The translations under genes were made by a program, and so were the position numbers. From NCBI GenBank assembly GCA_041299015.1, contig JBFYWB010000084.1, positions 17,049-81,048 on the forward strand: a stretch of 64,000 nucleotides of DNA. The letters are read 5' to 3'. This stretch comes from Deltaproteobacteria bacterium (GTDB lineage: Bacteria > Desulfobacterota > Desulfobacteria > Desulfobacterales > SG8-13). The notes under the pieces were generated by a model that saw nothing but the letters and a program-made list of their open reading frames with translations, did no database searches and was not told the DNA's origin. This document shows positions 16,491 through 59,892 of this stretch, one piece after another (position 1 is the first letter of the stretch; each line of letters starts with the position of its first letter).

Positions 16491-17876
16491 ATGCCCTCGA
16501 TCCCCATCCTGAAAGAACGCCGGTCCCAGATCCACCGCAAGGGCAGCGAGCCTTTCGAAATGACCTGCGGCAAGCACAGCCTGGCCGGTTCGGTAAGCCA
16601 GCGGGCCTGCGTGTTCTGCGGTTCACGCGTGGTGCTGTATCCCATCGCCGATGCCCTGCACCTGATCCATGGACCTATCGGCTGCGCGGCATACACCTGG
16701 GATATTCGCGGGGCCCTTTCTTCCGGGCCTGAACTGCACCGGATGAGTTTCTCCACCGACCTGCGTGAAAGGGATGTCATTTTCGGCGGAGAGAAAAAAC
16801 TGGCCGCCGCCTTGGGCGAACTGATTGACACCTACCAGCCCAAGGCCGCCTTCGTTTACTCTACCTGCATCGTCGGCATCATCGGCGACGATGTGGCCGC
16901 CGTCTGCCGGAAAGTGGAAGAAGAGAAGGGAATTCCGGTGCTGCCGGTTCATTCGGAAGGGTTCAAGGGAACCAAGAAAGACGGCTACAAAGCCGCCTGC
17001 GACGCCCTGTTCAAACTGGTGGGCACCGGCAGCACGGCCGATGTCTCACCGATCAGCATCAACATCCTGGGCGAGTTCAACATCGGCGGGGAAGCCTGGT
17101 TGATCAAGAAATACTACGAGCAGATGGGTGTCCGGGTGGTCTCCGTTATGACCGGGGACGGCCGTGTGGACCAGGTGCGCCGCAGCCACGCCGCCGCCCT
17201 CAACGTGGTGCAGTGCTCCGGAGCCCTGACCTATCTGGCCGACATGATGAAGGAGGCCTACGGCATTCCTTACATCCGTGCCTCCTATTTCGGCATCGAC
17301 GACGTGGCCAAGGCATTATACGACGTGGCCGATCATTTCAGCGCCTATCCGGAGATTAAGGACCGCACCCGCGACATCGTTCGCAACGAGGTGGAAGCGA
17401 TCATGCCCGAGCTCAACCTTATCAAGGCCGATCTCTCCGGCAAGCGGGCGGCCATCTATGTGGGCGGGGCCTTCAAGGCGTTCTCCCTGATCAGGGCCCT
17501 GCGCTACCTGGGGATGAAGGTGGTGCTGGTAGGCTCCCAGACCGGCAACCAAGGCGATTATGCCACCTTGCGGGAGATGTGCGATGACGGCACGATCATT
17601 TTAGATGATGCCAACCCACTGGAATTGTCCAAATATATCATCGAAAAGCAGGCCGACCTGTTCATCGGCGGCGTCAAAGAGCGTCCCATCGCCTTCAAAA
17701 TGGGTATCGGCTTTTGTGACCATAACCACGAACGCAAGATACCTCTGGCCGGTTTCGCCGGCATGCTGCAGTTCGCCCGCGAGGTGCACACCTCGGTCAC
17801 CAGTCCGGTGTGGCAGTTTGTGCCTGCCCGCACGGCGGCATGCCATAAGCTGTCTCAAAAAGAGGAGACCCCATGA
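16491..17876 (+). CDS. nifE: FeMo-co scaffold NifE
   Basis: SQRACVFCGSRVVL, HGPIGCAAYTWD, STCIVGIIGDD, VQCS. Confidence 0.96.
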   Translation: MPSIPILKERRSQIHRKGSEPFEMTCGKHSLAGSVSQRACVFCGSRVVLYPIADALHLIHGPIGCAAYTWDIRGALSSGPELHRMSFSTDLRERDVIFGGEKKLAAALGELIDTYQPKAAFVYSTCIVGIIGDDVAAVCRKVEEEKGIPVLPVHSEGFKGTKKDGYKAACDALFKLVGTGSTADVSPISINILGEFNIGGEAWLIKKYYEQMGVRVVSVMTGDGRVDQVRRSHAAALNVVQCSGALTYLADMMKEAYGIPYIRASYFGIDDVAKALYDVADHFSAYPEIKDRTRDIVRNEVEAIMPELNLIKADLSGKRAAIYVGGAFKAFSLIRALRYLGMKVVLVGSQTGNQGDYATLREMCDDGTIILDDANPLELSKYIIEKQADLFIGGVKERPIAFKMGIGFCDHNHERKIPLAGFAGMLQFAREVHTSVTSPVWQFVPARTAACHKLSQKEETP

Positions 17877-48798: not shown

Positions 48799-49479
48799 TC
48801 AACGCCCGGACCAGTCGGCCAGGGCGCCTCTCATAATCCGGGTCGCCCGAAAGAGGTGGCTCTTCACGGTCCCCTCGGCCAGTCCCATCGTTTGGGCAAT
48901 TTCAGAAATCTGCATTTCCTCGAAAACCTTCAGGTTGAAGATCATCCGCTGCCTGTCGGATAGGAGCGCCATGGCACCGCGAACGTCCCGCTGCAACTCA
49001 CGTGCGTCGACGGCTGCGCCCGGGTTGGCGATAGGTTCCGGGCTGGCAATTTTTTCGAGGGTTTCGGACGGTTCGCGGGTGTCATTCGCATTCCGTTGTC
49101 GAAAGAAAAACAATCGCCGCCAGCGCTTGCGGCGTCTGAGGGAATCCAGGCAGGTGTTGATCAGGATCCGATAAAACCATGTGTAGAAGGAGGACCTGCC
49201 TGCAAACTTGTCGATGTTGCGCAAGGCGGCCACAAAAGCTTCCTGGGTAAGGTCCAGGGCTTCTTCGCGATCGCCGGAGAGCATTCGATACGCCACTCCA
49301 AAGGCTCTGTCCTGATAGCGGCGGATCAGCTCTTCGGAAGCCTGCCGATCCCCGTTTTTCAATCGTTCGACCAGCTGTGGGTCGGGCACCGCCGCGGGCT
49401 TCGGCTGGTGTGCTTCCGGTGCGCCTCCTGCCGCCGGCCTGTGTCGGTCAACCGATTCGGCTCCTTTTCTCGATACCAT
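48799..49479 (-). CDS. ECF sigma-70 factor
   Basis: DLTQEAF, FAGRSSFYTWFYRI, GTVKSHLFRA; ATG 49479 with GAGG RBS. Confidence 0.92.
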   Translation of the reverse strand: MVSRKGAESVDRHRPAAGGAPEAHQPKPAAVPDPQLVERLKNGDRQASEELIRRYQDRAFGVAYRMLSGDREEALDLTQEAFVAALRNIDKFAGRSSFYTWFYRILINTCLDSLRRRKRWRRLFFFRQRNANDTREPSETLEKIASPEPIANPGAAVDARELQRDVRGAMALLSDRQRMIFNLKVFEEMQISEIAQTMGLAEGTVKSHLFRATRIMRGALADWSGR

Positions 49480-49575
49480 ACCTTCCTCTGCGCGGCGCCC
49501 CATCCGGTTGCCGGTAACGGGGAGAAAGCCGAACATGCGCGCCTTCTCCCCGTCGCATCGGTGTCACGGGATCAT

Positions 49576-50168: not shown

Positions 50169-51191
50169 TCAACAAAACAGCTTCACATATTCGCCGTAGC
50201 CTTCTTTCTCCAGGTCTTCCTCGGCAATGAACCGCAACGCGGCCGAATTGATACAGTAGCGCCGTCCCCCGGGCGGCGGGCCATCCGGGAAGACGTGCCC
50301 CAGGTGAGAATCGCCGTGTCGGCTGCGAACTTCGGTCCGCACCATGAAAAAGCTTTGGTCCTTTTTTTCGACGACGTGCTCCGGCTCGAGAACCTTGATG
50401 AAGCTTGGCCAACCCGTACCGGAATCGAATTTATCGGTCGAGCTGAACAGCGGCTCACCGGAGACGATGTCTACGTAAATACCCGGCCGATGATTGTCCC
50501 AGAATTCGTTGGTGAAGGCCGGCTCGGTGGCGTTCTCGCGGGTGACCTTGTACTGCAGCGGCGTCAGTTTTTGCTGCAGCGCAGCATCATCGGGCTTGGC
50601 ATACCGTTTAGTCGTGTCCGCTTTTTCGGCGGCTGCCGCGACCTCACCCCAGATTTTTTCGATGAACCGGTCCCGGCCCGAAGCGTGGCGGTAAGCCTCG
50701 TAGCGCAAGGGACTCTTTTTATGATAGCCCTGATGGTACTCCTCGGCCTTATAAAAAGTGGTCAAGGGCAGAATGGGAGTGGCGATAGCCCTGCTGAACC
50801 TCCCTGAACGGGCCAACTCCGCTTTCGATGCCTCCGCCTTCCGCTTCTGTTCCTCATTGTGATAGAAAATGGCCGTCCGGTATTGCGGCCCCCTGTCGAC
50901 GAACTGCCCCCCGCTGTCGGTGGGGTCCACATGCCGCCAGAAAGCGTCCAGCAACTTCCGGTAGGTCACCTTCTGCGGATCGTAAAAGACCTGCACGGCT
51001 TCATAGTGTCCGGTGCTGCCGGAGCATACCTCCTGGTAAGTCGGATTTGGTTTTGAGCCTCCGGTGTACCCGGAAACCACCTCGGCGACGCCCTCGATCT
51101 TTTCAAGGTCCGACTCCGAACACCAGAAGCAACCGCCGGCAAAGGTTGCCGTATCTAAATGTTTGAATGCGGGTTCCATAAATGATCTCAC
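50169..51191 (-). CDS. msrAB: Bifunctional methionine sulfoxide reductase MsrA/MsrB
   Basis: GGCFWC, GHYEAV, AEEYHQ; [24 protein letters not shown]. Confidence 0.95.
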
Positions 51192-52789: not shown

Positions 52790-54559
52790 TTATTTAATCG
52801 ACAACCCTGGGTCTGTTTCCGGCCGCGGGTCCCCTCCGACACCGCCGGACGGCGCGATGCCGATCGCATTCTTGCCCCTTTTCTTTATCGCAAACATGGC
52901 TTTGTCGGCCAGGGCGAGCAGAGCGGTCCGGTCGGGGGCGTCTTCGGGAAAAGTGGCGACCCCGAAACTGGCGCTGAGCTTCACTTTATACCCCTGGCCG
53001 GTAAGGAAGATTGTTTTGCGCAGGCGGGTCTGAATTTCCTTGGCCTTTAGGGCGGCCTGTTTTTTCGTGAACCCCGGCAGCGCGACGACGAATTCGTCGC
53101 CGCCGTAGGCCACTCCGAAAGCCGGTTCGATTAACGCGCCTTGTATGGTGGCGGCCACTTCCTGAAGTGTCCGGCTGCCGTTGAGATGACCGTAGGTGTC
53201 GACGACGTGCTTAAAATTATCCATGTCCAGGAAAATCAGTGAAAACGGCATACCGGAGGCTTCGCTCTCGGCAATCAGGTCCGCCAGGGCTTTGTACATG
53301 TAGCGGGTGTTGTAGAGCCCGGTCAGGTTGTCGAGGATCGACAGCCGCCGAAATTTTTCCTCGTTCTGGCGCAGTTCTTCTTCAGCGAGTTTCTTGGCCG
53401 TGTTGTCGACGAGGATCCCCTCTATGACAGGCTTCCCGTCATCGTCTGCGGTGAGCCTGACGTTGAACAGAAGCCAAAGCGGCAGCCCGTCTTTGCGTTT
53501 GAATTTAACTTCGTAGTTTGCCAACGTGCCCTCTTTCTGCAATGCGGCCAGCATGTGTTGGCGGTCTTCAGGATGAAAGTAGAGCGCGGATATATCCTGC
53601 TGCGCAGCCAGCAGTTCTTCGAGGGAGTGGTATCCCAGAATGCGGACGCACGCTGGGTTGGCGCGCAGCAGTTCACCGGAAAGCGAGCTCTGAAACATCC
53701 CTTGAACGGCATTTTCATACATGCGCCGGTAGCGTTCCTCGGCAAGACGCAGCCGTTGCTGCACGAGTTTCAATTCCGTTAAGTCCGACAGGAAGGACAC
53801 GTAACCGGTGATCAGCCCCGCTTCACCCCGCAGGGTGCTTCGGTTATAGAGCAGGGCGATTTCTCCGCCGCCTTTTACCGAGAACTGCGCTTCGAAGCTG
53901 ATGTGGTCCTGGCTGGCGAAATAAAACATGACCGTTTTCTTATCGTAAAGCGTATCCGGCGCTTTGCCGATGAGCTCTTCGCGCTCGCAGCCGAGCATCT
54001 GTAAGAGGGACCTGTTCACATCGATGATTGCAAAATGCGGATCCATGAGGATGTAGCCGCCCGAAGTGGTATCGATGACGCGTCGGTACTTCTCCTCGCT
54101 GCGGCGGAGTTCCTGCTCGGTCTTCTTTCTGCGGGTCATATCCGTAAAAAAAAAGAAGACCGACGGATCGGCATCCGTCGAAAACAGCACCACCCTGAGC
54201 CGGGCCCATTTGAGATTGTCCGCTCGGTCGACGATTCTGAACGGCGGCAGCCGGAAGACCGGTGCGCTCCCAAGCGATTTTTCGTATTGGCGCAGCACCG
54301 CTTGTCTGTCTTCCGGATGGATAAAATCAGCCAGCCAGCGTGCCGAAAAGTCCTGCCGGGTCAATCCAAACAGGTCTTCCGCTCTGGGATTGGCAAATAA
54401 AATTTTGTCGCCGCGGGCCACCACTATCGCTTCACCCGAATTCTCGATCAGAGCGCGATACACCGGCAGGGCCTCATTTTCCTTTTGGCAGGCTGCCGCT
54501 TGGGCCTCAAGGGCGCGATAGCTTTCTCCGTGATTTTTATCGTCCGTTTTTCGAGCCAT
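52790..54559 (-). CDS. PAS-PAS-PAS-GGDEF dinucleotide cyclase (Hypr-type Ser)
   Basis: Three PAS domains; DNLTGLYN, DMDNFK..VDTYGHLNGS, YGGDEF, SFGVA. Confidence 0.9.
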   Translation of the reverse strand: MARKTDDKNHGESYRALEAQAAACQKENEALPVYRALIENSGEAIVVARGDKILFANPRAEDLFGLTRQDFSARWLADFIHPEDRQAVLRQYEKSLGSAPVFRLPPFRIVDRADNLKWARLRVVLFSTDADPSVFFFFTDMTRRKKTEQELRRSEEKYRRVIDTTSGGYILMDPHFAIIDVNRSLLQMLGCEREELIGKAPDTLYDKKTVMFYFASQDHISFEAQFSVKGGGEIALLYNRSTLRGEAGLITGYVSFLSDLTELKLVQQRLRLAEERYRRMYENAVQGMFQSSLSGELLRANPACVRILGYHSLEELLAAQQDISALYFHPEDRQHMLAALQKEGTLANYEVKFKRKDGLPLWLLFNVRLTADDDGKPVIEGILVDNTAKKLAEEELRQNEEKFRRLSILDNLTGLYNTRYMYKALADLIAESEASGMPFSLIFLDMDNFKHVVDTYGHLNGSRTLQEVAATIQGALIEPAFGVAYGGDEFVVALPGFTKKQAALKAKEIQTRLRKTIFLTGQGYKVKLSASFGVATFPEDAPDRTALLALADKAMFAIKKRGKNAIGIAPSGGVGGDPRPETDPGLSIK

Positions 54560-54661
54560 CTGCCGCTCGCATGTCAAATTGTTCCGAAGGGGACCCGGGG
54601 CGGCCACCAGGCCCGGTCATGCCCTCGGGGACCTCGGGGCGCTTGGGGCCACGGCCAGCGG

Positions 54662-55861
54662 TCAATCCAGAACCTCCACCGACGGGATGTTGAAAAGCCT
54701 TTTTAAGACTTCATCGAAATAGTCGGGCAGGTATCGGTACCAGAGCTTGATCGGCGTCTGCTCCGATTCCCCCCGTTTCGAGGCCGGCAGCATGAAGAGG
54801 TACCCCATGAGATACTCGATGTTGCGGGCCAATTGGCCGTTGTATTGCTGCTCCAGGCGCTGGCGGATGATCCGGTCTTCGTGCATGCAGCGACCGATCT
54901 CGCTCTCCAGCATCTCCTGGTAGTCGGAGAGAATGACCTCCAGATTGACGCTGTCTTCTCCGGAGAGGATGAACTCCCTGAAAGCGCGGTTGGCGGCAGC
55001 AGGGGCGGCCCCCCGCATCCGCATCACATTGATGAGGCGCTCGCCCAGTGGAATTGAAGCCATTTGTTCCCGGTCTGGCCGCAGGCGCACGATGAGGTTG
55101 ACCGCATTGTATCTGCCCGTGTGCGGCTCGATTTCGATCACCTCGCACCCCCGCATATTGCCGATCAGGTCCATGAACCGACTGCGGTCGGTTTGTTCAA
55201 CGATCGCCTTGAGACCGGCCACGTCCTGGATAACCAGACCGTCGGCATCTCGAATCGGCTGCCCCTGCCTGAGGTCATCCAGCACGCGGCTCTCCGCTTT
55301 GAGAAATTCGGCGGTCATGTCTTCGGGCGGTGTGATCAAATGCTCGCGGGATATCCCTTTGAGCCGCGCACGGTCTTCCGCAAGGTCCTCCGCCCGGCGT
55401 TTTATGGTCGCGTACAGTCTGTCGATGATACGTCGGGCACTTTTTTCGGCCAACCGGCGGACCCGCTTGATGCGGTTGGAGCCGATATAGCAGGATCCGT
55501 CCGGACCGCCGCTGAAAAACAGGGTACCGTGAAAAGGGGTTTCACGGTAATACAGCTCCGGACTGCAGCGGTAAGCGTTCAGGATTTCGTCCACCCGTGC
55601 GTTCCGGTAGGGGACATTGGTCACGATGACGTTTTTAAGATCGCCTTTGAGACAGACCTTGCGAACCTGGAGCGCATGCGGATGAAAGCGCTGGAAGATC
55701 TGCTCCGAGAAGGCGGCCAGATAACGAGACACATAGGCATTGTTGAAGTAGACCAATTGCGCAAGGTCATCCCCGTCCGTGCGTTGGGGGTTGCCGTACA
55801 TCCAGCGCTGGATCAAGTCCCGCAGGGCATCGCGGTGTAGATAGCTGCCGATGGTGATCAT
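54662..55861 (-). CDS. Hypothetical protein with a divergent RelA/SpoT synthetase-like core
   Basis: RIKRVRRLAEK, DVAGLKAI, YNAVNL, LEVIL and SEIGRCMH occur in RSH motif order; ATG 55861 lies 10 bp after the upstream stop. Confidence 0.7.
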   Translation of the reverse strand: MITIGSYLHRDALRDLIQRWMYGNPQRTDGDDLAQLVYFNNAYVSRYLAAFSEQIFQRFHPHALQVRKVCLKGDLKNVIVTNVPYRNARVDEILNAYRCSPELYYRETPFHGTLFFSGGPDGSCYIGSNRIKRVRRLAEKSARRIIDRLYATIKRRAEDLAEDRARLKGISREHLITPPEDMTAEFLKAESRVLDDLRQGQPIRDADGLVIQDVAGLKAIVEQTDRSRFMDLIGNMRGCEVIEIEPHTGRYNAVNLIVRLRPDREQMASIPLGERLINVMRMRGAAPAAANRAFREFILSGEDSVNLEVILSDYQEMLESEIGRCMHEDRIIRQRLEQQYNGQLARNIEYLMGYLFMLPASKRGESEQTPIKLWYRYLPDYFDEVLKRLFNIPSVEVLD

Positions 55862-55871
55862 CTTTTCAGTC

Positions 55872-57380
55872 TCAGGTGGAAAAGGATGGACGTTTCGGTT
55901 GACGTCTCTCACTTGCCTGACGCGACCACTCATAAAGCGCTATGGCTGCGGCCGCGGCGGCATTCAGGGACTCGACCGCCGCACGAATCGGGATGCGCCG
56001 GGCCGTCCGGCGCCAGGCCGCCGGCAGACCGGGCCCCTCGAGACCGATCAGCAGTCCGAAAGACGGAGGAAATACCGTGGCGCGGATGTCGTCACCCTCG
56101 GCCGAGAGCGCTATAATCGGCAGGTCGGCCGGCAATTCTTTCAGGGACGGTCCGTGCACAAGCCGGGTGGACATCACCGTTGCGCCTGATGCCCGGAGTG
56201 ACTTGGGATGAAAAGGGTGGGCGCTTTCGGCCAGCAGGATCACCTGACCGACACCGAAGGCGGCCGCCGAACGGATGACGGCCCCGACGTTTTCAGGGTC
56301 CTGAAAGGGGACCAGCAGATTGCAGCCTTCCGCAAATCCGTCACTCGCCCGCCAGGATGGGAACGGTGGGACCCTAAGAAGAAGCAGGGGGGCGTGTGTG
56401 CCAAAAACATCGAGCATCTCGAACAATCGCGGGGCCAATTGATACCAGGCGAGTCGATCGGGGGCGTCGGCCGGCGGCGGTTGCCGATCATCCGAACTGA
56501 TCCAGGCCTCGCAATGAGCGGGATGATTTTTGAGCGCTTCGGCGATCGGCTTGGATCCGGCAAACAGGGCCCGGCCCCATTTTTTGATCCCGCGACCGCC
56601 GAGCAGTTTTTTCATCTCCTTGAAAATGGTGTTGCTTTCGCTTGCGATCATTTTCACCGGGAAACGCACCCCGGCGTCGGCGTTGGGAATGCTGCGCGGC
56701 TGGTCGATACGCTCCATGACGACGAGGCGGCGCCGATGGCGGGTGTGGGGAATGATGTAAGCGCGATCCTCGACCGGCTTGTAGACCGACAGCCACCGGT
56801 TGCGGACCTCATCCAACTCCGCTTCGCAGTGCGGACCCTTCATGAAGATCACCCTGCCGCCGGGTGCCAGGCACCCGCGGACCCGCTCCAATGTCTTGGC
56901 CATGGTTTCCACGGCCCGGGTGATGACGCCGGCCACCGGTTCCTCAAAACCGGCGCCGATTTTCTTTTCGATAATGCGCACACCCTCCAGTTGCAGCCGA
57001 TCGACGACCGCGGCCAGGAAATCGACCCGCTTGCGGCGGCTTTCGGCCAGAAGGATCTCCAAATGCGGCTGATAGATCTTGAGGGGGATACCGGGCATGC
57101 CGGGACCGGTTCCCAGGTCCAGCAGGGGCGAGGGAAGTTGCATCAGGTCGGCGGGCAGGATCGAATCGACGTACAACTTTATGACCATGTTGTCGAAATT
57201 GTGCACCCGCGTCAGGTTGAGCTCCGGGTTGCTCTGCCGCAACATCCCGTGGTAAGTCCACAACTGTTGGACCTGCAGGGCCGACAAATGAATGCCGCAT
57301 CTGTCGAAGAGGGCCACCATCTTTTCCGGTCCGGGTGAGCCGATGCAGCCGGAAGAACTTTCTTGACTGGTTTGCTTCAT
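55872..57380 (-). CDS. rsmG: 16S rRNA m7G527 methyltransferase RsmG fused to a TrmH/SpoU methyltransferase
   Basis: NLTRV...H/Y.DS, LLDLGTGPGMPGIPL, ITRAV; then QDPENVGAVIRSAAAFG, GLEGPGL, VESLNA. Confidence 0.85.
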   Translation of the reverse strand: MKQTSQESSSGCIGSPGPEKMVALFDRCGIHLSALQVQQLWTYHGMLRQSNPELNLTRVHNFDNMVIKLYVDSILPADLMQLPSPLLDLGTGPGMPGIPLKIYQPHLEILLAESRRKRVDFLAAVVDRLQLEGVRIIEKKIGAGFEEPVAGVITRAVETMAKTLERVRGCLAPGGRVIFMKGPHCEAELDEVRNRWLSVYKPVEDRAYIIPHTRHRRRLVVMERIDQPRSIPNADAGVRFPVKMIASESNTIFKEMKKLLGGRGIKKWGRALFAGSKPIAEALKNHPAHCEAWISSDDRQPPPADAPDRLAWYQLAPRLFEMLDVFGTHAPLLLLRVPPFPSWRASDGFAEGCNLLVPFQDPENVGAVIRSAAAFGVGQVILLAESAHPFHPKSLRASGATVMSTRLVHGPSLKELPADLPIIALSAEGDDIRATVFPPSFGLLIGLEGPGLPAAWRRTARRIPIRAAVESLNAAAAAAIALYEWSRQASERRQPKRPSFST

Positions 57381-57431
57381 GGTATCGTGTGCGGTAGAAC
57401 AGGATTGCTGGTTATCGATTAAGGGATCCCC

Positions 57432-58235
57432 ATGCGCTCCGATAGCTGTCTTTATCATCCCCGCTGGCCGGTTTTCTTCGAGGACAACCACCTGCTCGCG
57501 CTCTTCAAGCCGGCCGGCCTGCTCGCACAGGGAGATCATTCCGGGGCAGCGTGCCTGTTGGATCTGGCCAAGCGCTGGCTGAAAGACCGATATGCCAAAC
57601 CCGGCCGGGTGTTTCTCGGCCTGGTACACCGCCTGGATCGACCGGTGGCGGGCGTGATGCTCTTCGCACGCACCTCCAAAGCCGCCGCGCGCTTGAGCGC
57701 CCAGTTTCGTTCTCAAACGATCCAGAAAACCTATCTGGCGGTCGTCGAAGGCACGCCCCTGAAGCCGAACGGAACCCTTTGCGATCACATCGCACGACAG
57801 GGGCCGGCCGGCCGCATCCTTTCCGAACCCACCGCGCGCAGCCGCGAAGCGCGGCTGCAGTATCGTCTGATCGGCAGCACCGGGGACCGGAGTTTGCTGC
57901 AGGTGGCGCTGCAAACCGGCCGGCGTCATCAGATCCGGCTGCAGCTCTCCCACGCCGGTCATGCGATCATCGGGGATGTGCGCTATGGCGCCGCCGGCCC
58001 CTTGCAGGACCGGCAGATCGCACTGTTGGCCCGGGAGGTCACCGTCATGCACCCCGTCCGCAAAACGCCGCTGCGATTGGTCTGTCCCCTGCCGACCGGG
58101 TGGCCCTGGCCGGCGGCTGCGGAGCAAGGCCCGGCCCCCTACTGGAATTATGCCGATTTTTTCCGCGAAGGTGTCGGTTTTGCTCCGCCGGACGCGGGCC
58201 CCGGGGTTACTCCCGGGTCAACTGTCGGTATTTGA
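57432..58235 (+). CDS. RluA-family pseudouridine synthase
   Basis: KPAGLL, HRLDRPVAG (catalytic Asp), TGRRHQIR, IIGDVRYG. Confidence 0.92.
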   Translation: MRSDSCLYHPRWPVFFEDNHLLALFKPAGLLAQGDHSGAACLLDLAKRWLKDRYAKPGRVFLGLVHRLDRPVAGVMLFARTSKAAARLSAQFRSQTIQKTYLAVVEGTPLKPNGTLCDHIARQGPAGRILSEPTARSREARLQYRLIGSTGDRSLLQVALQTGRRHQIRLQLSHAGHAIIGDVRYGAAGPLQDRQIALLAREVTVMHPVRKTPLRLVCPLPTGWPWPAAAEQGPAPYWNYADFFREGVGFAPPDAGPGVTPGSTVGI

Positions 58236-59892
58236 TCCGGTGGGGCTGGTCCGCGGCCGAACCCAACCGGCTGCGCCGGTCGGCTTCATAGTCCGAGTAG
58301 TTCCCATCGAACCACAGCGCGCGGCTATTGCCTTCAAAGGCCAGGATGTGGGTTGCGATCCGGTCCAGGAACCAGCGATCGTGACTGATGACCACGGCAC
58401 AGCCGGCGAAATTCTCGAGGGCCTCTTCCAACGCCCTCAAGGTGTTGACGTCCAGGTCGTTGGTCGGTTCGTCGAGCAGCAGAACATTGGCGCCCTGTTT
58501 CAGCATCCGGGCCAAATGAACCCGGTTGCGCTCGCCGCCCGAAAGCATACCGATCCGTTTCTGCTGGTCGGCGCCTGAAAAATTAAAGCGTGCCACGTAG
58601 GCGCGCGACTTGACGCTCAGGTCCCCCAGCTCGACCACATCCTCGCCATCGGCGATCGTTTCCCAGACCGTTTTTTGCGGATCGAGCACGTCGCGGCTCT
58701 GGTCGACATAGGCCAGGCGGACCGTGTCGCCCATGCGGATGCTGCCGTTATCCGGCGGTTCCTGTCCGGTGATCATCCGAAACAGCGTGGTCTTGCCGGC
58801 GCCATTGGGGCCGATGACGCCGACGATGGCGCCCGGCGTCAGGGTGAAGCTCAATTCTTCCAACAAGAGCCGCTCGCCGTAAGACTTGGTGAGGTTGAGG
58901 GCCTCCACGACCAGATTACCCAGCCGGGGCCCCGGTGGAATGAAGATTTCCATGTCTTCGACCCGCTTGGCATTTTCCAGCGAGAGCATCTGTTCGTAGG
59001 CCTGGATGCGCGCCTTCGACTTGGTGCGCCGCGCCTTGGGAGACATGCGGATCCATTCCAACTCGCGCTGCAGGGTTCTCTGGCGCTTGCTCTCGCCCTT
59101 TTCCTCATGCTGCAGACGGTTTTGCTTCTGCTCCAGCCACGAACTATAGTTGCCCTTCCAGGGGATTCCCCGCCCGCGGTCCAGTTCCAGAATCCAACCG
59201 GCCACATTGTCCAGAAAATAGCGATCGTGGGTCACGGCAATGACCGTGCCCGCATACTGCTGAAGATGGTGTTCCAGCCAGGCCACGGTTTCGGCGTCGA
59301 GATGGTTGGTGGGTTCATCGAGCAGCAGGATATCCGGTTTCTGCAGCAACAGCCGGCAGAGCGCCACGCGGCGGCGCTCACCGCCCGACAGAATCTTGAC
59401 CGGGGTCTCTCCCGGAGGGCAGCGCAGCGCCTCCATAGCCATCTCGAGCCGCGCGTCGAGGTCCCAGGCATCCCGGGTATCCAGCTGTTCCTGGATTTCT
59501 CCCTGGCGCTCGAGGAGCCGGTTCATATTTTCCTCGGACATCGGCTCGGCCAGTTGCTCGTTGACCTGGTTGTAGGTCTCTATCAGATCAACGGTTTCCT
59601 GAACACCCTGCTGGACGACGTCGCGTACGTTTTTCGCGTCGTCCAACGCCGGTTCCTGTTCGAGGAAACCGATCGTAAAACCGGGCGAGACGATCGTCTG
59701 GCCGACGAAGTCTTTGTCGAGCCCGGCCATGATGCGCAGCAGAGAGCTCTTGCCGGACCCGTTCAGTCCGAGCACCCCGATTTTGGCGCCGTAAAAATAG
59801 GAAAGGGAGATATCCTGCAGCACGGGCCGCTTGTCATGATACTTGGCGACGCCGATCATCGAATAAATTATCTTGTTGGGTTGATCGCTCAT
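58207..59892 (-). CDS. ettA: ABC-F energy-dependent translational throttle protein
   Basis: LSYFYGAKIGVLGLNGSGKS, two ABC domains, ELEWIRMSPKAR, KYRQLTR C-terminus. Confidence 0.96.
   Translation of the reverse strand: MSDQPNKIIYSMIGVAKYHDKRPVLQDISLSYFYGAKIGVLGLNGSGKSSLLRIMAGLDKDFVGQTIVSPGFTIGFLEQEPALDDAKNVRDVVQQGVQETVDLIETYNQVNEQLAEPMSEENMNRLLERQGEIQEQLDTRDAWDLDARLEMAMEALRCPPGETPVKILSGGERRRVALCRLLLQKPDILLLDEPTNHLDAETVAWLEHHLQQYAGTVIAVTHDRYFLDNVAGWILELDRGRGIPWKGNYSSWLEQKQNRLQHEEKGESKRQRTLQRELEWIRMSPKARRTKSKARIQAYEQMLSLENAKRVEDMEIFIPPGPRLGNLVVEALNLTKSYGERLLLEELSFTLTPGAIVGVIGPNGAGKTTLFRMITGQEPPDNGSIRMGDTVRLAYVDQSRDVLDPQKTVWETIADGEDVVELGDLSVKSRAYVARFNFSGADQQKRIGMLSGGERNRVHLARMLKQGANVLLLDEPTNDLDVNTLRALEEALENFAGCAVVISHDRWFLDRIATHILAFEGNSRALWFDGNYSDYEADRRSRLGSAADQPHRIKYRQLTRE

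Follow-up and report, generated by a model that had tools for sequence, protein, structure and literature searches.

Does the open reading frame (ORF) at 54662..55861 on the minus strand of a 64,000-nt stretch of Desulfobacterales DNA encode an enzyme of the RelA/SpoT homologue (RSH) superfamily, and if so, which reaction does it catalyze? The stretch, hereafter the window, comprises positions 17,049 to 81,048 of contig JBFYWB010000084.1 (assembly GCA_041299015.1), and the ORF encodes a "hypothetical" protein that a sequence-only reading of the DNA had taken for a divergent, stand-alone RelA/SpoT-like synthetase missed by annotation. RSH enzymes control the stringent response, and more recent work has added the synthesis of (pp)pApp and the pyrophosphorylation of tRNA to their known activities. 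Structure comparison, profile searches of the Protein Data Bank (PDB) and Pfam, and profile-profile alignment together bore out the earlier assignment, and they indicate a real, very divergent family of RSH-type synthetases that is probably an active pyrophosphokinase.

Homology of the interrupted core

Guided by secondary structure, we trimmed the family alignment a single time and kept residues 105-150, 204-262, and 303-350 as the core. An hmmsearch with the core profile against 177,635 distinct PDB sequences placed three small alarmone synthetases (SASs) at the top, namely 2be3 (E = 1.5e-6) and the RelP entries 6fgk (1.3e-5) and 6fgj (1.2e-4), with CapRel at E = 0.25. When the insertion-deleted cores were compared with Pfam, 23 of 42 matched PF04607 (RelA_SpoT) with a best E value of 2.2e-4, these matches being sub-threshold and obtained on edited sequences, and every other Pfam family was matched by at most one of the 42 cores. 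Alignment of the core profile with hhalign gave a probability of 64% against Bacillus subtilis RelQ and of 93.4% (E = 2.6e-7) against an RSH synthetase profile, the latter over 104 columns covering motifs 1-5. That profile was built from seven sequences, which were RelQ, RelA and SpoT of Escherichia coli, and RelSeq together with three PDB fragments; the four named sequences were checked and gave 123-149 bits to PF04607 and 455 bits to 5ded. Formal membership in PF04607 fails for this family, and remote homology to the RSH synthetase domain is supported by these comparisons of edited sequences.

The AlphaFold2 model, computed with the family alignment, had a predicted local distance difference test score (pLDDT) of 84.6 and a predicted template modeling score (pTM) of 0.83. 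From residue 124 onward, a strand leads through motif 1 into a long helix, which is followed by the helical hairpin of insertion 1, a strand bearing motif 2, and a helix; then come two strands, the second of which carries motif 3, the three short helices of insertion 2, a strand bearing motif 4, and helices with motif 5. This is the element order of the RSH synthetase domain plus two excursions. In a Foldseek search of 350,542 PDB chains, RelQ (5dec_A) ranked first (probability 0.99, E = 8.8e-3), followed by CapRel (7ztb_B, probability 0.80; 9erv_A, 0.75) and then by generic nucleotidyltransferases, and in the BFVD viral library a phage protein named "Tas1" ranked first (probability 0.90). An independent model of a homologue that is 56% identical (P0090; pLDDT 81.4) also returned 5dec_A first (probability 0.97, E = 0.019), with the next match at E = 0.77. 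RelQ was thus the top PDB match with two models, in line with the RSH or nucleotidyltransferase fold expected by the sequence-only reading, with low template modeling (TM) scores. The structural evidence is consistent with an RSH fold and is not strong alone. Taken together, profile comparison and modeling showed residues about 118-345 as a predicted RSH synthetase core interrupted by two family-specific helical insertions.

Searches with the unedited sequence gave a different picture. The native protein had no Pfam or NCBIfam match at E ≤ 10, including no HD, TGS, or ACT domain, the absence of which had been noted from the sequence; it also had no PADLOC match, and PHROGs returned noise alone. 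Against PDB sequences, both phmmer with the native protein and hmmsearch with a 35-sequence family profile yielded noise at E > 0.1, such as LINE-1 ORF1p and BORC6. PF04607 was absent from the native protein (E ≤ 10) and from 44 native relatives (E ≤ 1), and its gathering score of 27 bits was not reached. A word-indexed search of 5.8 billion proteins found 587 relatives. The 120 matches listed were 379-440 amino acids (aa) long and 54-99% identical, and the names supplied for them were all "hypothetical protein" or "Uncharacterized protein" except for one IMG record (P0053), which bore the automated, COG-style name "ppGpp synthetase/RelA/SpoT-type nucleotidyltranferase". The description of the family as hidden therefore holds for Pfam and for most database names, but not for this record, which already carried an RSH name. 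When 1.84 billion representative proteins were searched exhaustively with a profile, the 217 clusters returned were all the family or its fragments, with no bridge to canonical RSHs among them. No informative domain fusions were found in the family. One 439-aa protein (P0251) joins an enolase-superfamily N-terminal part (MR_MLE) to a C-terminal family fragment, and it probably reflects a chimera created by assembly or by a frameshift, not a genuine fusion.

Motifs, insertions, and conserved residues

The five motifs quoted in the sequence-only reading are all present in the translation of the gene, in the order given there. Their positions are collected in Table 1, together with those of the other features of the gene and its immediate neighbors. 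Conservation was counted over 44 relatives with identities down to 22%, and spacings were referred to B. subtilis RelQ (R46, K56, D72, Y116, E139).

Table 1. Coordinates of the gene, its predicted elements, and its immediate neighbors in the window
Feature	Residues	Coordinates	Strand	Description
Target gene	1-399	54662..55861	-	399 codons + TGA; 399-residue "hypothetical" protein
N-terminal region	1-117	55511..55861	-	Mostly helical plus two strands; pLDDT 84-95
Motif 1, RIKRVRRLAEK	130-140	55442..55474	-	Aligned to RelQ/RelP RVKPxxSIxEK; RSH RxKxxxSxxxK
Insertion 1	151-205	55247..55411	-	Helical hairpin extending the motif-1 helix; helices 134-167 and 179-198
Motif 2, DVAGLK	213-218 (DVAGLKAI 213-220)	55208..55225	-	Aligned to DIAGLR; RSH DxxGxR
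Motif 3, HTGRYNAVNL	YNAVNL 251-256	55094..55123	-	Aligned to GYRSYH; RSH GYxSxH
Insertion 2	263-302	54956..55075	-	Strands 4 and 5 separated by three short helices
Motif 4, NLEVILS	LEVIL 307-311	54926..54946	-	vEiI aligned to vEiQiR; RSH vEIQIRt
Motif 5, ESEIGRCMHEDR	SEIGRCMH 320-327	54872..54907	-	RelA/SpoT/RelSeq alignment
C-terminal tail	346-399	54665..54826	-	Conserved LPIKLWxRYLPDYFD; pLDDT 43-84
Upstream neighbor, GidB/RsmG + SpoU methyltransferase ORF		55872..57410	-	TGA 10 nt before the target ATG
Downstream neighbor, three PAS + GGDEF diguanylate cyclase		52790..54607	-	First start codon GTG at 54607

Motif 1 follows the pattern R130-x-K132-x3-R136-x3-K140 at a strand-to-helix junction and is predicted to bind ATP phosphates. 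R130 and K140 are each kept in 43/44 relatives, K132 and R136 in all 44, and R143 in 41/44; the canonical serine of this motif is replaced by the invariant R136, and the extra conserved arginines around motif 1 are R133, R135, R136, R143, and R144. In motif 2, D213 and G216 are invariant (44/44 each), and a lysine, K218 (42/44), stands in place of the canonical arginine. Motif 3 keeps Y251 in 41/44; its serine has become alanine (A253) and its histidine asparagine (N255), each in 32/44, and the histidine is retained in 8/44. Motif 4 keeps E308 in 42/44 with aspartate in the other two, and its canonical glutamine is replaced by isoleucine (I310, 39/44) and its arginine by serine or threonine at position 312 (32/44). 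By alignment, D213 is the predicted Mg2+ ligand, Y251 the predicted acceptor-stacking tyrosine, and E308 the predicted catalytic glutamate acting in metal binding or catalysis. In FaRel2, where the motif-2 aspartate coordinates Mg2+ and the motif-3 tyrosine stacks on the acceptor, mutating either residue inactivates the enzyme (Kurata 2021, bioRxiv 10.1101/2021.04.30.441581).

These counts agree with the earlier statement that the metal-binding aspartate and glutamate are kept. Its companion statement, that the base- and acceptor-reading residues are changed, applies to the motif-3 Ser/His and motif-4 Gln/Arg positions but not to the stacking tyrosine; since the tyrosine is kept in 41/44 and the canonical histidine survives in 8/44, the acceptor site appears to be remodeled, not abolished.

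Motif 5 is the most conserved stretch of the family (E321 43/44, G323 44/44, H327 43/44, E328 44/44). E321, G323, and H327 lie at +13, +15, and +19 from E308, which is identical to the spacing of the long-RSH pattern EIQIRT-x6-AExGxAAH (RelA VEIQIRTKQMHEDAELGVAAHW). Residues 319-331 were modeled at a pLDDT of 64-68, and because model confidence is low there, this segment may be mobile.

The two insertions lie between these motifs. Motifs 1 and 2 are 73 residues apart, compared with 16 in RelQ; the first insertion is helical, as had been described, and adds about 57 residues, the length of about 70 first assigned to it being the total spacing. It carries the near-invariant E190 (43/44). From motif 3 to motif 4 the spacing is 57 residues, compared with 23 in RelQ and 17 in E. 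coli RelA, so that the second insertion, put at about 45 aa from the sequence, is present with about 34-40 extra residues. Its helices (264-269, 274-282, and 287-300) were modeled at a pLDDT of 91-97, and it bears the near-invariant pair R283-G284.

The N-terminal region also fits its earlier description as a novel segment of about 125 aa: 129 residues precede motif 1, compared with 45 in RelQ, and among the 1.84 billion representative proteins searched with the profile, nothing outside the family shares it. It holds the invariant residues D29, K72, and P109. At the other end, the C-terminal tail is conserved at P370 (42/44), Y377 (43/44), P379 (39/44), and D380 (38/44); the model has low confidence there, and the tail is a possible regulatory or docking element.

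Distribution and genomic context

In a scan of one genome per Genome Taxonomy Database (GTDB) species, relatives were found in at least 146 species genomes, a lower bound given that the scan required exact peptide patterns. The best 80 of these at least 146 genomes were nearly all labeled Desulfobacterales or Syntrophales, with identities of 52-83%. Hosts include the cultured Desulfatitalea alkaliphila M08but and metagenome-assembled genomes (MAGs) of Syntrophus aciditrophicus, and distant members were found in MAGs of Myxococcota and of Thermoanaerobaculales (Acidobacteriota). The gene is usually single-copy. The MAG MFD00709.bin.2.122 has two copies, 90% identical to each other and on separate contigs (L019 7391-8590 and L021 8001-9200), which could stem from recent duplication or from mixed strains. 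A further family member (L016), 55% identical to the window protein, lies on a 2.4-kb contig (DATMWO010000113.1) binned as the archaeon Methanoregula sp., most likely a mis-binned bacterial contig.

Clustering of neighboring ORFs revealed no neighbor common to more than 25 of 81 loci. The top cluster, which covers 25 loci and includes an ORF of the window, occurs on both sides of the gene and on both strands, and the other clusters reflect lineage-specific synteny (a DD-carboxypeptidase, fumarase subunits, a guanylate kinase, a Tim44-like gene, and an RsmG-SpoU fusion). Eight further loci had contexts unrelated to one another, with Ser/Thr kinases among the neighbors. Across the 81 loci and these eight contexts, no conserved antitoxin-like partner stood beside the gene, which extends to the family the absence of an adjacent antitoxin that had been noted in the window. 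No riboswitch or other Rfam element was detected in the window or in five other loci, and the 45 nt upstream of the start codon contained no common element in 35 loci. A tblastn search with canonical SYNTH domains gave zero matches over the window and 94 loci (1.25 Mb), which indicates that no canonical Rel is encoded nearby.

Two neighboring genes may be mentioned separately. A guanylate kinase-family gene lies divergently upstream in seven loci (including L003/L004 6980-7681 and L025 6938-7687); this adjacency is suggestive of a tie to guanine nucleotide metabolism, and the linkage is lineage-specific. A Ser/Thr kinase (Pkinase) gene lies within 2-4 kb on the same strand in two of five distant members examined (L086 2455-4107 and L091 9272-10957), and one of these two arrays also has DedA/VTT and Amidohydro_2 genes.

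The median isoelectric point (pI) of the family is 6.3, and neither a signal peptide nor a membrane segment was predicted, from which the protein is predicted to be cytoplasmic and mildly acidic. A gene that is usually single-copy and strongly conserved, that stands without a conserved partner, and whose product is predicted to be cytoplasmic fits a self-contained regulatory enzyme better than a toxin. We dropped a toxin-antitoxin or defense toxin role for want of a partner gene, a PADLOC match, and a defense context, and a secreted effector role for want of a signal peptide or delivery domain.

In the window itself, the ORF listing also offered a longer reading of the locus (54662..55933, minus strand, 423 aa). 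We placed the start codon at the ATG at 55859-55861 (MITIGSY...) instead of the upstream ATG at 55933 because the internal MITI is the N-terminus in 34/34 aligned homologues, each of about 399 aa, and because the 24-codon extension overlaps the 3′ end of the upstream gene; the 423-aa reading was dropped for the same reasons. The upstream ORF encodes a GidB/RsmG 16S rRNA methyltransferase domain (residues 46-208) and a SpoU/TrmH methylase domain (residues 366-493). Because the target gene starts only 10 nt past its stop codon, the two are probably co-transcribed in this genome; in the 81-locus clustering, the RsmG-SpoU gene was linked to the family solely in eight closely related loci. Beyond it, an RluA-type pseudouridine synthase gene (57432-58235, plus strand) converges with an ABC-F gene (58207-59892, minus strand; two ABC_tran domains and ABC_tran_Xtn), their 3′ ends overlapping by 29 nt, and these two genes form with the RsmG-SpoU gene a small translation-related cluster beside the target. 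On the other side, the gap to the PAS-PAS-PAS-GGDEF gene, which encodes another nucleotide-messenger enzyme, is at least 54 nt on the same strand, and this adjacency is not conserved across the family. An MsrA-MsrB fusion (PMSR and SelR domains; 50169-51191) and an ECF sigma factor gene (48799-49536) follow, both on the minus strand.

Candidate reactions and relation to known RSH enzymes

On balance, we lean toward the reading that the family is a previously undescribed, deeply divergent branch of RSH synthetases, acting as an ATP pyrophosphokinase with a remodeled acceptor pocket. In such an enzyme, R130, K132, R136, K140, and R143 would hold the phosphates of ATP-Mg2+, D213 and E308 would serve metal binding and catalysis, and the ribose-bearing acceptor would stack on Y251, so that the β,γ-pyrophosphate of ATP could be transferred to the acceptor 3′-OH in the manner of (p)ppGpp and (p)ppApp synthetases. 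A purine nucleotide would be the most likely acceptor. Its pocket would be rebuilt by the changes from Ser/His to Ala/Asn in motif 3 and from Gln/Arg to Ile/Ser in motif 4, together with conserved residues of the N-terminal region and of both insertions, and specificity may therefore differ from GDP/GTP.

Several observations weigh against the pyrophosphokinase reading. The unedited sequence and the full-length profiles match neither PF04607 nor RSH structures by sequence, full-length hhalign was weak (probabilities of 3% and 21% against RelQ or the RSH profile), and the removal of the insertions was guided by the hypothesis, though it was made once and left untuned. On the structural side, Foldseek E values were about 1e-2, TM-scores were 0.19 (query) and 0.36-0.39 (target), and the root-mean-square deviation was large. 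Three canonical positions are lost, namely the glutamine and arginine of motif 4 and the arginine of motif 2 (now lysine), which could mean a different donor, a different chemistry, or a loss of activity. The common pocket for D213, E308, and Y251 is predicted from the alignment, not from model coordinates.

The closest known relatives of the family are the SASs RelQ and RelP (PDB 5dec, 2be3, 6fgk, and 6fgj), which make (p)ppGpp or pGpp from ATP and GTP, GDP, or GMP. They provide its best sequence-profile and structural matches, likewise consist of the synthetase domain without HD, TGS, or ACT, and align with it residue for residue at RxK...K in motif 1, Asp and Gly in motif 2, Tyr in motif 3, and Glu in motif 4. 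The target protein differs in having 399 aa instead of about 210-230 (housekeeping SASs have about 200-250 aa and are detectable with RelA_SpoT), in its two insertions, 117-aa family-specific N-terminal region, and conserved C-terminal tail, and in reading YNAxN for YRSxH, ExIxS for ExQxR, and DxxGxK for DxxGxR. Its motif 5 follows the ExGxxxH pattern of long RSHs, not the SAS pattern WATIEHSLNYKY. With Rel, RelA, and SpoT, the long RSHs, it shares the order of the five motifs and the spacing from the motif-4 Glu to E-x-G-x3-H, whereas it lacks an HD hydrolase and TGS, ACT, or other ribosome-sensing domains and carries the insertions and the changed pocket residues.

A bolder form of the pyrophosphokinase reading, which we hold only tentatively, is a housekeeping signaling enzyme of anaerobic Desulfobacterota, Myxococcota, and Acidobacteriota that applies RSH chemistry to an acceptor new to the superfamily. 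A new substrate or alarmone, as proposed in the sequence-only reading, is compatible with the data as a hypothesis. Candidate acceptors would be nucleotides with a base other than guanine or adenine, dinucleotides, cofactors, and specific RNA ends; if true, this would mean a new nucleotide messenger or modification, and the two insertions and the N-terminal region would form a new acceptor pocket. The (pp)pApp synthetases Tas1/Apk1 and the exported alarmone synthetases (EASs; mBio 2025, PMC12691689) illustrate that divergent RSH domains can change their acceptor. The phage protein named Tas1 was the top match in the BFVD library, whereas the target, unlike these enzymes, has no secretion or delivery domain, signal peptide, or immunity gene.

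It is unlikely, in our judgment, that the RSH-derived fold serves something other than pyrophosphate transfer, either as a nucleotide-binding pseudoenzyme or in another nucleotidyl or phosphoryl transfer to a non-nucleotide substrate. The family-wide replacement of Gln and Arg in motif 4, Ser and His in motif 3, and Arg in motif 2 speaks for this possibility, the losses in motifs 4 and 2 leaving room for altered chemistry or a binding-only role, as do the new invariant residues outside the core (D29, K72, P109, E190, and R283/G284) and the presence of the generic nucleotidyltransferases JHP933 and MenT1 among the weaker structural matches. However, the key RSH catalytic Asp, Glu, and Tyr and the phosphate-binding Arg/Lys ladder are kept under strong selection, DxxG follows strand 2 in place of the Pol-β-type GS...DxD signature, and the best matches in both structure and sequence are all RSH synthetases and not other nucleotidyltransferases.

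Still less probable, to our mind, is the same fold and chemistry directed at an RNA 3′ end (tRNA CCA or rRNA), with the N-terminal region or the C-terminal tail acting as an autoinhibitory element in the manner of CapRel's fused antitoxin domain. The translation-targeting toxic SASs (toxSASs) CapRel, FaRel2, and PhRel2 add pyrophosphate to tRNA at its 3′-CCA terminus. CapRel takes second and third place among the PDB structural matches and, like the target, is a relatively large protein (343-373 aa), in its case with the synthetase core joined to a regulatory domain, and the Asp and Tyr required for FaRel2 activity are conserved in the target family. The many extra conserved basic residues near motif 1 (R133, R135, R136, R143, and R144) and, in this window, the position of the gene directly after the rRNA methyltransferase fusion and near the pseudouridine synthase and ABC-F genes would also suit an RNA substrate. 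On the other hand, these translation-related surroundings are confined to eight close relatives and other contexts are unrelated, the protein is acidic to neutral overall, and in contrast to toxSASs it lacks an adjacent antitoxin, a PADLOC match, and a phage or defense-island context. The extra parts also differ in position, lying N-terminal to and inside the core, while CapRel has a C-terminal pseudo-zinc-finger domain (pseudo-ZFD). Again unlike toxSASs, the best 80 of the at least 146 relatives in species genomes fall almost entirely in two orders, which looks like a vertically kept housekeeping gene and not a mobile toxin. An RNA 3′ end stays a live rival because no sequence signature is reported to separate tRNA-modifying from nucleotide-using SASs (Kurata 2021).

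Finally, that the RSH likeness arose by chance or convergence on an unrelated fold is highly improbable: the native sequence matches no library and TM-scores are low, but the core profile reached three different SAS structures at database-corrected E values of 1.5e-6 to 1.2e-4, PF04607 was matched by 23/42 cores against at most one for any other family, the 93% hhalign probability spans all five motifs, RSH proteins ranked first in both structure libraries and for both of the independent models, and the order of secondary-structure elements matches that of RSHs.

We regard the family as a new, architecturally unusual RSH subfamily, and no such family is described in the searchable literature. 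The RSH surveys (Atkinson 2011; Jimmy 2020) were built on hidden Markov models (HMMs) of the canonical synthetase domain, and the entries for Syntrophus aciditrophicus SB in the table of Atkinson 2011 are limited to fpRel, two Rel, and Mesh1-L. Given that canonical-domain HMMs were used and that Pfam RelA_SpoT misses the family, it may be missing from RSH catalogues. Should its product turn out to be ordinary (p)ppGpp, what is left is a new SAS subfamily of odd structure. If the enzymes are active, they would represent an unexplored part of the RSH superfamily that is widespread in sulfate reducers and syntrophs, with cultured hosts such as D. alkaliphila M08but. The family is a candidate source of new alarmone chemistry, or of a further level of stringent control, among anaerobic organisms that cycle carbon and sulfur.

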